Shown here: positions 12,001-15,000 of the stretch, in pieces | How positions within the stretch are numbered: the stretch's first letter is position 1 | Layout: each line of letters starts with the position of its first letter | NCBI RefSeq assembly: GCF_003991155.1 | Contig: NZ_CP031297.1 | Source: Escherichia coli | GTDB lineage: Bacteria > Pseudomonadota > Gammaproteobacteria > Enterobacterales > Enterobacteriaceae | DNA length: 64,000 bases | Reading direction: 5' to 3' (one strand) | Made by a program: the position numbers

Positions 12001-15000
12001 GCGTTGAAATGCAGATGCTTGGTGGTCGTGGAAATGCACCTCAGGACAACTCTCAACGTGCAGCGCCCCAAAAAGGGCAACGTACAGGAGCCGGTACGCA
12101 ATCTGCTCCTGTGCAGCAATCAGCACCGCAAGGTGGTATGGGCGGAGGCTATGGTCCCGCTCCTGATGGCTGGGATGATGACATCCCGTTCATGCGGCTG
12201 CACCACTTGGCTGGCGGGTAACACCGCCAACTCTTACTAAACCCCACGGGGGCACTCATGCCCCGAGGGGGTCATGGTGTCCTCAAACCGTTCATTCGTG
12301 AATTGGAGAAACACCATGTCTGATAACAAATCTCTTGTAACCCGTATCGCAAGCCGGTTTGGCGTGGACACCCGAAAGTTCTATGAAACTTTGAAGGCGA
12401 CCGCATTCAAGCAGCGAGATGGAAGTGCCCCGACCGATGAGCAGATGATGACGCTCCTGATCGTGGCTGAACAGTACGGTTTGAACCCTTTCACTCGGGA
12501 AATCTATGCGTTTCCTGACAAGCAAAATGGGATCATTCCGGTAGTAGGTGTTGATGGTTGGAGCCGCATCATCAACGAGCATCCCCAGTATGATGGCGTC
12601 GAGTTCGTGTATTCGGACAAGATGGTCAGAATGCAGGGGGCGAAAGTTGACTGCCCTGAGTGGATTGAATGCGTGATTTACCGTAAGGACAGATCTCGCC
12701 CTATCCGCATCAAGGAGTTCATTGATGAGGTGTACCGTGAACCGTTTCAGGGTCAAGGTCGCAATGGTGCTTACACTGTTGATGGCCCCTGGCAAACGCA
12801 CACCAAGCGTCAACTCCGGCACAAGTCGCTGATCCAGTGTTCTCGTGTCGCATTTGGTTTCTCTGGTATTTATGACCAGGATGAAGCTGAACGCATCCGT
12901 GAAATGGAGCAGGCATCGGCCATTAACCCGGCTATTGCCAATCTCCCTTCACCATCTCAAGTTCAAAGCCAAGAGCCTTTGGCTATTGAGCACAAAGAGC
13001 TTGACCCGATCCTAACCAAACTCGCAAATCGCGCCATTGCTGAAAACGCATGGTCTGCGGCGCATGAGTATGTGAAGGGACGGTATGAAGGTTCGGAACT
13101 GCAATATGCGACTCAATTCCTTCGTGACAAGGAGATGGATCAAATGGAGCCTCCGAAACCTGACTACCAGGAAGCGCACGAGCAAGAGTCCGCCGCTGGT
13201 GGTTCTGCAAATGCTGAACCTGGTGCCGAAGAAATGCCGCCTTTGAGTGACGAGGACATGATCCCTGTTACAGAAGAGGAGGGCGCGGAAGGCAGTTACT
13301 ACTAACCCCAACGGGGGGGACTCCCCCGCTGGGGGAGATCTCCCTCCTAACCATTGGAGAGAGGTCCATGAAAATAGTCAACCTATCGCAACGCGAGGAA
13401 GATTGGCTTGATTGGCGGCGTCAAGGTGTAACAGCCACTGACGCCGCTATCCTGCTCAATCGGTCTCCGTACAAAACACGATGGAGACTGTGGGCCGAGA
13501 AGACTGGGTATGCGCGTGAAGTCGATCTGAGTCTTAATCCGCTGGTTCGCCGGGGGATAGAAAACGAAGATGCTGCAAGACGCGCTTTCGAGGAGAAGTA
13601 TGATGACATGCTGCTCCCCGCCTGTGTCGAATCGGTTCAATACCCGCTCATGAGGGCCTCCCTGGATGGCCTGAGAGATAACGGGGAGCCCGTCGAGCTG
13701 AAAAGCCCGAGTGCGACTGTCTGGGAAGATGTTTGTGCTGAGAAAGCAAACAGCAAGGCATACCAGCTTTATTACCCGCAGGTGCAACACCAGCTCCTGG
13801 TAACGGGGGCCAAGCAAGGCTGGTTAGTCTTCTACTTTGAAGGTCAGATTCAGGAGTTTCCAATACTCCGAGACGAAGCCATGATTCAAGAAATCTTGGC
13901 CGAGGCTAAAAAGTTCTGGCAACAGGTAGTAGACAAGAAGGAGCCCGACAAAGATCCAGAGAGAGACCTGTACATACCGCAAGGTGAAGAGGTCAACCGT
14001 TGGATTGCTGCTGCTGAGGAATACCGCCTCTATGATGCAGAGATTCAGGAGCTGAAACAGCGACTGTCTGAGCTTCAAGAAAGGCAAAAGCCTCATCTCG
14101 ACACCATGAAGTCCCTCATGGGGGAATACTTCCATGCCGACTACTGCGGTGTGATGGTAACGAGATACAAAGCGGCTGGCCGGGTAGACTACAAAAAGCT
14201 GTTGGCTGATAAGGCGTCAGGCGTGAAGCCTGAGGATGTTGACCAGTACAGAGAGAAGTCATCAGAGCGGTGCCGTGTAACGGTTACTGGCTCTGTGAAG
14301 CCACGGTACATTGTTGATGAGGACGTGCTTGCTCCTCTTGATGATTTGCCGGAAGAAGTAGAGACGTTCTACTGGTGAGTGGGGGATTTTCCCCCGCTTT
14401 CCCTTGGGGATTCTGGGAGTCTCCAACGGAAAGCAAGATTTTGTTCTCTTCGGAGAGCGAAAAGTGCGATAGCTGGTCGCCAAAAACAAACAGCAAATTA
14501 ACGTTAATTTACTAGCCCAACCGGGCGCATCCGCCCGGTTCGGGACGTGGTGCGCCCCCAACTTTTTGGAGTGCATCATGACTAAAGTGAACCATCTACA
14601 AAGCCTCTGTGTTATCCACGTAGACTTTGACATCTGGAGTGGACAAACCCGTTTGTCTGCATCTGATCTCAAGCTGGGCGAGGGTGGTGAAATTCCACCT
14701 GAGAAAGTAGCTCAACTGGGAAGTAAGAAGATCTGTGATCCGGCTAAGCTGAAAGGCTTTCATCGCCTGAAAACAGAAACTCGTCGCCTCCTGCTGAAAT
14801 TCGGTATGCCGTTCATGAACGGATTTGCCGTACCCGTCAGCAAGACCGATGAAATCTGTAACAAGCTGAATGACATCAACTTTCAGTTTAACCAACTGAA
14901 ACAGGATTTCATCAAAGGTTACAACAAAGCCGTGGATGAATGGTGTCAGGAGAACCCTGAGTATGAACGAGCTATCCGTGCCGGAGCCCTTCCAAAGGAA

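Follow-up and report, generated by a model that had tools for sequence, protein, structure and literature searches.

A covarying RNA module at the leaders and junctions of AcaCD-dependent operons in an IncC plasmid backbone

Introduction

IncC plasmids carry intergenic repeats, rptI (rptIa-f), that lie upstream of vcrx087, vcrx089, vcrx098 and so on, the longest being 155 bp (Roy et al. 2020, NAR 48:8815, PMC7498323). The plasmid SSB/Bet/Exo proteins were found to anneal these repeats in the repair of Cas3-induced breaks, leaving deletions of 9.3-23.7 kb. The same authors detected rptI by blastn in IncC plasmids of Gammaproteobacteria and not in SXT/R391, noted a 32-bp identical piece in SGI1, and speculated that palindromes might slow Exo (PMC7498323). 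Here we analyse a 64,000-nucleotide (nt) stretch of Escherichia coli DNA (RefSeq assembly GCF_003991155.1, contig NZ_CP031297.1), referred to as the window. By the 100% identity of positions 13300-19000 to hundreds of IncC (IncA/C2) conjugative plasmids, the window is IncC plasmid backbone. A preliminary description of one gene junction, 14381-14436, had noticed a GC hairpin and a CTTTCC...GGAAAG clamp ahead of a TAGCTGG element, and had proposed weak termination with antitermination logic.

This segment is the 5' half, comprising a hairpin (T) and a clamp (P0/P0a), of a five-helix, sense-strand RNA module of ~115-140 nt. Matched by location, spacing and the 32-nt core in SGI1, rather than by the published repeat sequences, the module is identified here as the transcript of the IncC rptI repeats. 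The reported rptI deletion sizes fit the spacings in the window (18302 + 599 - 8591 = 10310; 9266 versus 9268). The rptI study treated the same DNA as DNA homologies only, without the RNA secondary structure, covariation, T/P0 clamp, invariant-loop hairpin or distribution in Beta- and Alphaproteobacteria found here. Rfam searches, performed at the gathering score on the window and 16 related loci and permissively on the focal junction, returned only attI and group II intron matches, which lie elsewhere. Literature searches with the motif strings gave noise only, and those on IncC antitermination and terminators gave nothing on the element. While the DNA repeats are already known, the RNA architecture appears to be undescribed so far.

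Results

The exo-DUF3150 junction folds as a series of five helices

The focal junction lies between exo (vcrx093; 13368-14378, stop codon 14376-14378) and a DUF3150 gene (start codon 14578). RNAfold of the site gave the helix series T, P0, P0a, P1 and P2 on the + strand. The T hairpin, GGGGGA-UUU-UCCCCC (14381-14395), starts 2 nt past the exo stop codon and is followed with zero gap by GCUUUCC (14396-14402), a pseudo U-tract that forms the 5' arm of P0. Its partner, the clamp arm GGAAAGC, lies at 14428-14434. The two arms enclose a variable insert, the inner hairpin P0a (UUGGGGAUUC-UGG-GAGUCUCCAA, 14404-14426), which is seen in the fold and by covariation in relatives. The fold then gives P1 (UUUUGUUCUC-UUCG-GAGAGCGAAAA, 14439-14463) and P2 (GCGA-UAGCUGG-UCGC, 14466-14480), the latter with the invariant loop at 14470-14476, and the module ends in a CA-rich tail, CAAAAACAAACAGCA (14481-14495). 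The CAGC of the tail (14491-14494) is predicted to be able to pair with GCUG of the P2 loop, which would give an H-type pseudoknot. The Shine-Dalgarno (SD) sequence of the downstream gene sits within a further hairpin of the fold. Segment 14376-14580 folds at -92.8 kcal/mol on the + strand (z = -6.3) and at -82.8 kcal/mol on the reverse strand.

The module is conserved and covaries across Proteobacteria

Relatives were collected by scanning species-representative genomes with the pattern TAGCTGG-N7-AAAYAAWCAGYA, which matched at least 120 loci. All counts of relatives below refer to the matches listed by that scan, and the pattern itself fixed the loop and the tail, an ascertainment bias for those two parts. 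About 100 of these loci are real relatives, spread over Gammaproteobacteria (Vibrio, Shewanella, Photorhabdus, Edwardsiella, Marinobacter, Idiomarina and Methylomonas), Betaproteobacteria (Sulfuritalea, Tepidimonas, Comamonas, Gallionella and Rhodocyclaceae) and some Alphaproteobacteria. A syntenic but divergent pAQU-type Vibrio plasmid has ~10 copies with different stems and the same loop. A scan of IMG/VR yielded 39 matches, of which 38 were chance matches in coding DNA and only one (locus L031) was real.

A perfect 4-bp P2 stem, in many different sequences, was present in ~100 of 125 pattern matches that had not been selected on the stem, and the matches without it were chance matches within coding DNA. 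In 118 unique P2 sequences each pair showed 15-65 double compensatory changes and at most one broken combination. These 118 had been selected for an intact stem, so the unselected count of ~100 of 125 is the fair test of P2; some of the counts given here use sequences chosen for an intact P2 or P0. Rare loop variants (UAACUGG, CAGCUGG and CAGCUGA) occurred without compensation in the tail. A P1 hairpin was found in 120 of 120 relatives, with 103 distinct sequences and a median free energy of -11.5 compared to -8.6 after shuffling.

For the clamp, the P0 pair YUUU(U)YC...GRAAA(A)R was present in 51 of 120, and the length that it encloses clusters at 24-28 nt. In a motif-anchored test the outer pair flanking P0 was canonical in 42 of 51, compared to 13 of 51 when slid. 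This test, together with covariation in P0a, replaced a generic search for any 6-bp helix, which we dropped since 46% of shuffled sequences scored positive. When 45 distinct full-type elements, drawn from many genera, were aligned with MAFFT, RNAalifold recovered P0, P0a and P2. At P0a columns 37/77, six pair types were found and 39 of 45 pairs were canonical, compared to a mean of 18.8 and a maximum of 28 in shuffles; P0a had played no part in selecting the 45 elements. A stable T hairpin was present in 42 of 42 scorable full-type relatives (median free energy -14.9 compared to -7.9 shuffled), with GNRA or UUCG loops, an RNA-specific signature, in 15 of the 42. T begins at a median of 14 nt past the upstream stop codon.

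The sense strand was the more stable one in 76 of 120 (p = 0.001), and this modest energy bias, along with G.U pairs inside helices, places the structure on the sense strand. Between TAGCTGG and the start codon lie a median of 102 nt (interquartile range 96-123). The proteins encoded downstream fall into 36 unrelated clusters, among them a DUF3799 nuclease, SSB, a PAPS-reductase-like protein, DUF1281, an AAA ATPase and DUF3150. Outside IncC, several betaproteobacterial loci with the element, including L046 and L128, have genes for RecT, a DUF3799 PDDEXK nuclease, SSB and a primase-like protein; RecT, nuclease and SSB make up the same single-strand-annealing set that IncC has in bet/exo/ssb.

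The recurrence of the junction layout, its insert length, its spacing to the stop codon and the covariation in P0a and P2 are far beyond chance. Collectively, these data show that the module is a conserved, covarying, sense-strand structured RNA. They also bear out the preliminary description's picture of a ~110-140 nt multi-stem RNA of drifting sequence and kept pairing, in the order hairpin, clamp, TAGCTGG hairpin and CA tract: P0a and P2 covary, and the elements are conserved in Proteobacteria.

Full copies and promoter-proximal cores in the window

The window holds seven exact cores and one degenerate core, all on the + strand. Six belong to full copies, which start at 9524, 14381, 18213, 22611, 26416 and 32658, and two cores without T and P0 lie just 3' of AcaCD boxes (8566-8616 and 29617-29657). 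All five junctions for which a hairpin and clamp had been reported are present, and the earlier count of five is extended by the full copy at 9524-9660 and by the two cores.

The 9524-9660 copy lies 5' of vcrx089, an AAA ATPase gene, and consists of T (9524-9553), P0 (9572-9599), P1 (9604-9628), P2 (9631-9645) and a tail to 9660. The copy at 18213-18327, at the 5' end of the vcrx098 transcript, has T at 18213-18228, P0 at 18229-18239/18259-18269, P1 at 18272-18294, P2 at 18298-18312 and a tail to 18327. Upstream of vcrx107 (22611-22741), T (22611-22625) contains the upstream stop codon within its loop and is followed by P0 (22626-22633/22674-22681), P1 (22685-22707) and P2 (22712-22726). The vcrx112 copy (26416-26523) combines T (26416-26436) and P0 (26436-26441/26470-26475) with a short P1 (26475-26487) and a P2 with a G.U stem pair (26494-26508). 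The last full copy, 5' of vcrx120 (32658-32780), comprises T (32658-32673), P0 (32692-32719), P1 (32724-32748) and P2 (32751-32765). The core at 8566-8616 has only P1, P2 and tail, P1 beginning at about +3/+4 of the mapped vcrx087 start. The degenerate core at 29617-29657 follows the vcrx114 promoter with a short P1, GG-UAGCUGG-CC and CAAAACAGCA.

At the 14381, 18213, 22611, 26416 and 32658 junctions T is followed with no gap by GCUUUCC, CACUUUCUCAG, UGCUUUCC, CUUUCC or CUUUAC. Complementary arms of the GGAAAG type are found at 14428-14434, 18259-18269, 22674-22681 and 26470-26475. The GGAAAG closure proposed earlier therefore holds for four junctions, while at 32658 and at 9524 the clamp is CUUACU/AGUAAG. 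On the + strand of the 64 kb, CTTTC followed after 18-45 nt by GAAAG occurs at those four junctions only, compared to a mean of 1.47 in block shuffles.

The module is thus shown to occupy two kinds of site: the extreme 5' end of AcaCD transcripts, as the core or, for vcrx098, as the full module, and the position just past a stop codon, as the full module. The placement of T beside the upstream stop codon had been described for every junction. It is seen elsewhere but fails at 18213, where the TGA at 18210 ends no open reading frame (ORF) of at least 50 aa and the T hairpin instead sits at the predicted start of the AcaCD-driven vcrx098 transcript.

Three further features of the repeats were recorded. 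A perfect 121-nt direct repeat (9601-9721 and 14436-14556) brackets the ATPase-ssb-bet-exo (hde) block. In some IncC records the junction query matches four times rather than six, as would be expected after deletions between copies. A perfect palindrome, AAATTAACGTTAATTT, directly follows the CA tail at 9660-9675, 14495-14510 and 32780-32795 and is absent from the other copies.

The module is transcribed through

The expression figures used here were taken from published tables for pVCR94, the IncC prototype, rather than from raw reads. Published chromatin immunoprecipitation-exonuclease (ChIP-exo) and 5' rapid amplification of cDNA ends (5'-RACE) data show AcaCD promoters at just three sites in this region, before vcrx087, vcrx098 and vcrx114. 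The corresponding AcaCD boxes, which are context and lie outside the RNA, are at 8501-8525, 18151-18174 and 29552-29575 on the + strand. The vcrx087 transcript starts by 5'-RACE at window position ~8562-8564, 2-4 nt 5' of P1, and the vcrx114 transcript starts ~2-4 nt 5' of the short P1. For vcrx098, where 5'-RACE gives no clear signal, T would lie at about +1 to +3 of the start that the AcaCD box predicts.

In the pVCR94 RNA-seq data, expression of every gene in vcrx087-vcrx096 and vcrx098-vcrx125 is about zero unless AcaCD is present, and then it is strong. Since the genes behind the internal copies are at about zero in the acaCD deletion, these copies are not independent promoters. We had considered internal sigma-70 promoters, and a consensus scan found none at the elements. 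Across the five internal junctions the RNA level changes from 11025 to 3463, 1908 to 2868, 1483 to 960, 580 to 382 and 3475 to 10485, with no consistent fall. By reverse transcription-PCR (RT-PCR) from a vcrx094 primer, vcrx087, vcrx089 and bet are on the same RNA. The lack of a consistent drop and the single vcrx087-vcrx094 mRNA indicate that T is transcribed through and do not support the termination at T that the preliminary description had suggested.

The sequence of T agrees with read-through. The T hairpins share with intrinsic terminators a GC-rich stem (5-10 bp), frequent GNRA or UUCG loops, U residues directly after the stem and a position just past the stop codon. They differ in that ~3 U are followed by CC, the U residues are paired to the downstream GGAAAG, and read-through is published. 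In the relatives the 8 nt after T contain a mean of 3.4 U, with GCUUUCCAG the commonest sequence. A terminator scan did not call the T hairpins and did call the operon-end hairpin at 17753. The earlier view of T as a terminator-like stem with a truncated U-tract is therefore retained. As an intrinsic terminator T was rejected: the hairpin is present, but ~5 or more U in 8 nt are lacking and neither RNA-seq nor RT-PCR shows ends in vivo. Strong canonical intrinsic terminators with a long stem and a U-rich tail, which contrast with the T hairpins, mark operon ends at 17753-17788 and 29518-29550 (+ strand). Each lies directly 5' of an AcaCD box (18151 and 29552), as true AcaCD operon ends.

The operon boundaries called by Rockhopper (pVCR94 Dataset S1) fall at vcrx088|089, 093|094, 106|107, 111|112 and 119|120, which are all five of the internal element gaps. 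Within one AcaCD-dependent transcript, such boundaries could reflect low coverage over structured RNA, or processing.

Discussion

A proposed cis-acting leader and intercistronic RNA

We rank first, though only tentatively and at somewhat below even confidence, a post-transcriptional role for the module. In this reading, still less than an even bet, it would work in cis and after transcription, as a leader or between cistrons, insulating and stabilising the message behind it and offering an invariant hairpin or pseudoknot for recognition. The short U-stretch of T would be locked in the P0 helix, and T, P0 and P0a, which abut with a 0-nt gap and could stack as a long rigid block, would form a compact, nuclease-resistant and Rho-refractory barrier just past the upstream stop codon. 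As the clamp lies 3' of the U-stretch it cannot compete with T, so it is not a classical competing antiterminator, and any effect would be exerted on the finished RNA or on a paused complex. P1 and P2 would give the downstream message a defined 5' structure, and, lying ~0-4 nt from the 5' terminus in primary transcripts, they would have the geometry of a 5' stem-loop stabiliser. P2, probably as an H-type pseudoknot with the A-rich tail, would present an invariant UAGCUGG / AAACAAACAGCA surface. That loop and tail stay invariant in very different hosts and elements implies a reader that is specific and highly conserved, and such a factor, encoded by host or element, would act through P2 on the stability and/or translation of the following cistrons.

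Among described elements, 5' stem-loop stabilisers and processing hairpins (the ompA 5' untranslated region and T7 early-region RNase III sites) resemble the module in having a hairpin a few nucleotides from the 5' end and helices that punctuate a polycistronic message; they differ in having no invariant loop or tail and no conserved multi-helix architecture. Against a leader role, a pure stabiliser or insulator needs neither an invariant 7-nt loop nor a 12-nt tail, so a specific reader must be postulated, and no reader of the loop or tail was identified. The pseudoknot partners are both invariant, the sole variation being CAGC to CAGU, which is G.U-compatible; the conservation of the tail is largely inflated by the search pattern that gathered the relatives; and the RNA-seq values are noisy for small genes.

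A more far-reaching claim, possible but doubtful in our view, is that T-P0-P1-P2 represents a new autonomous functional RNA class of AcaCD/SetCD-type conjugative elements. It would be a put-like antiterminator that modifies polymerase independently of proteins, or an anti-Rho element, or else a pseudoknot sensor or ribozyme; it would coordinate the establishment and defence-evasion genes of multidrug-resistance plasmids and would have been copied by the parasitic island SGI1.

Possible processive antitermination

It is unlikely, though a live alternative, that T and CUUUCC form a weak terminator or pause while the P1-P2 core modifies RNA polymerase, in the manner of put or nut, for read-through (Rho included) along 10-kb operons, with the successive copies reloading the polymerase. 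The stems and tetraloops of T are terminator-like with U residues directly after, a core stands behind each of the three AcaCD promoters here and behind that of SGI1, the operons are long and every T is passed by transcription, and the invariance of the loop would fit a reader as universally conserved as RNA polymerase. Two neighbouring promoter-near stem-loops recall put, whose two stem-loops in the nascent RNA by themselves render RNA polymerase resistant to terminators. The likeness to HK022 put and lambda nut lies in adjacent stem-loops just 3' of the promoters of long operons, one of them with an invariant loop, repeated along the unit. It does not extend to sequence or model similarity or to a conserved boxA, and the loop has 7 nt and is not a GNRA-like pentaloop. 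A boxA of the lambda nut type (CGCUCUUUA-like) was rejected, as CGCUCU occurs only in the 8566 copy, where it belongs to the covarying P1 stem, and the relatives do not conserve it; the 7-nt UAGCUGG loop likewise excludes a boxB pentaloop. The RfaH ops/JUMPstart element (12 nt, GGCGGTAGnnTG, fixed G5 and T6) was also considered. Its best copy, TGCGGTAGCTGG at 26492-26503, matches 9 of 12 positions, and the likeness was rejected because positions 2-5 lie in the freely covarying P2 stem (GCGA, GAGG, GUCC, UUCC and others).

With ~3 U and no call in the terminator scan, T can be read through without any special mechanism. Canonical terminators at operon ends, moreover, still seem active. With an IncA plasmid as the proxy sequence for the vcrx095-098 region, two U-rich terminators were found, before vcrx096 (U6) and before vcrx097, and the pVCR94 levels fall from 3015 (vcrx095) to 1372 (vcrx096) to 56 (vcrx097). 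This suggests, from a proxy sequence and from values that are noisy for small genes, that polymerase still responds to real terminators once it is a few kb beyond an element, which argues weakly against a strong and persistent antitermination state. No NusG, N or Q-like factor was identified, although an N-like protein was not specifically searched for, and antitermination does not predict the fixed ~100 nt spacing to the start codon.

A possible DNA-level function

We consider it distinctly improbable that the primary function is at the DNA level, with rptI serving as dispersed direct homologies for Bet/Exo/SSB single-strand annealing after double-strand breaks, palindromes that may slow Exo in a Chi-like manner, and RNA folds that are incidental. 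The repair of Cas3 breaks in pVCR94 did use rptIa-f, giving the 9.3-23.7 kb deletions, and palindrome-dependent slowing of Exo was proposed in the same study (Roy et al. 2020, PMC7498323). The perfect 121-nt repeat around the hde operon and the RecT, DUF3799 nuclease and SSB genes at the betaproteobacterial loci fit this role as well. Annealing, however, needs identity rather than compensatory changes, and the copies within one element differ in every helix while pairing is kept. The G.U pairs, GNRA/UUCG loops, sense-strand bias, +3 position and start-codon spacing point to selection on RNA, and hairpins would impede annealing. SGI1 retains a single copy behind an AcaCD promoter. In the SGI1-like record OX345320.1 (locus L164, 1110-1320) an AcaCD box is followed by a P1 of unrelated sequence and then by P2 and tail, 32 nt identical to the IncC copies, with a small hydrophobic (membrane) ORF next. 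SGI1, an island that parasitises IncC plasmids, borrows AcaCD but not Bet/Exo homology and keeps the core behind an AcaCD promoter, which points to a role in expression.

A possible responsive pseudoknot

P2 and the tail might instead form a ligand- or protein-responsive H-type pseudoknot, a preQ1-I-like architecture or a translational operator, that co-regulates translation of the element-led cistrons through the SD-holding structured region ~70-90 nt downstream; we give this little credence. The geometry is that of a textbook H-type pseudoknot (the P2 stem, a 2-nt L1 of UA, GCUG:CAGC, a 1-nt L2 of G and an A-rich L3 that is always 10 nt long), its unpaired nucleotides do not vary, and the start codon lies at a fixed distance. 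A hairpin encloses the SD, and a structure sequestering the ribosome-binding site was predicted for vcrx089 by Roy et al. (PMC7498323). PreQ1-I pseudoknots are of similar size and share the short stem and the potential of loop nucleotides to pair with the end of an A-rich tail; they differ in that L2 of the module is 1 nt and that its copy number and gene context are unfit for queuosine biology. A preQ1-I riboswitch was rejected, the Rfam PreQ1 models giving no match at E <=10 on 14370-14585 or at the gathering score on the window and 16 loci. Indeed no Rfam riboswitch model matched even at E <=10. Seven to ten copies before unrelated genes would be unusual for a metabolite sensor, an alternative pairing joining the pseudoknot to the SD hairpin was not found, and neither was a candidate binding protein.

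A possible role in transferred single-stranded DNA

Action of the structure in the transferred strand during establishment in the recipient, as a priming (ssi-type) site or single-stranded DNA promoter, is very improbable: the downstream genes are of establishment type (ssb, recombinase, nucleases, methylase-like, primase), the multi-hairpin size is similar to that of ssi sites and the P2 loop contains CTG, the start trinucleotide of DnaG, but helices this short cannot rebuild -35/-10 elements, the folded strand is the sense strand and thus the wrong one for a Frpo-type promoter, RNA-type tetraloops are enriched, the copies are found only in gene leaders, at fixed spacing, and at +3 of transcription starts, and on IncC maps the region lies tens of kb from oriT. 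Frpo and ssi sites are likewise repeated structured elements 5' of ssb-type establishment genes, yet they are long imperfect hairpins of the template strand that rebuild a promoter, whereas the module has helices of 4-10 bp on the sense strand, far from oriT. No promoter-like hexamers were found at the elements.

Genes and other features of the window

The gene order, taken from the RefSeq annotation of one identical plasmid, runs from traC-traN into a long same-strand accessory run that encodes the AAA ATPase, ssb, bet, exo, DUF3150, a VWA protein and many hypothetical proteins. The first ORF behind the vcrx087 AcaCD promoter (8715-9034, + strand) encodes 106 aa with a hydrophobic helix at the N-terminus and a C-terminus ending ...EPDWDYLEIPTYLRKGKELVW. 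This end resembles the C-terminal peptide of E. coli FtsZ, which ends ...EPDYLDIPAFLRKQAD, and a betaproteobacterial counterpart (L046, reverse-complement 2709-3068) has DWSKYDVPAFIRRG. The product has no Pfam match and may, judging from its sequence, be an FtsZ-tail mimic acting on cell division.

A second leader module is repeated at 9063-9098, 12237-12272, 18965-18995, 22209-22239, 23544-23579 and 31737-31767. It consists of AACCC, a GC hairpin and then a hairpin that encloses the SD, and it precedes most genes, even those without a TAGCTGG element. At 9063, GGGGCAAC and GUUGCCCC permit two mutually exclusive folds. Further downstream, Rfam AAC_AAD_leader (attI) matches lie at 42158-42227 and 47042-47113, and perfect repeats of 300 nt (40900-41199 and 45784-46083) and 265 nt (52298-52562 and 63736-64000) are found. 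By sequence these indicate a class 1 integron and insertion sequence (IS) copies, a resistance region downstream of the backbone.

Implications

We would class the module as a new family among the structured cis-acting leader and intercistronic RNAs of mobile elements. IncC plasmids, with their relatives, rank among the major vehicles of multidrug resistance, and the genes behind these leaders include the hde operon, with its restriction- and CRISPR-evasion functions and its ssb, bet and exo genes, as well as many uncharacterised establishment genes. The recombination repeats published as rptI are hereby recast as a transcribed, structured RNA. With more than 100 members that covary, recognition nucleotides that do not vary and no counterpart in Rfam, the RNA module offers a handle on how long accessory operons are expressed, and its UAGCUGG loop, CAGC tail and CUUUCC/GGAAAG clamp provide a simple mutational target for antitermination, stability and translational control in clinically important plasmids.

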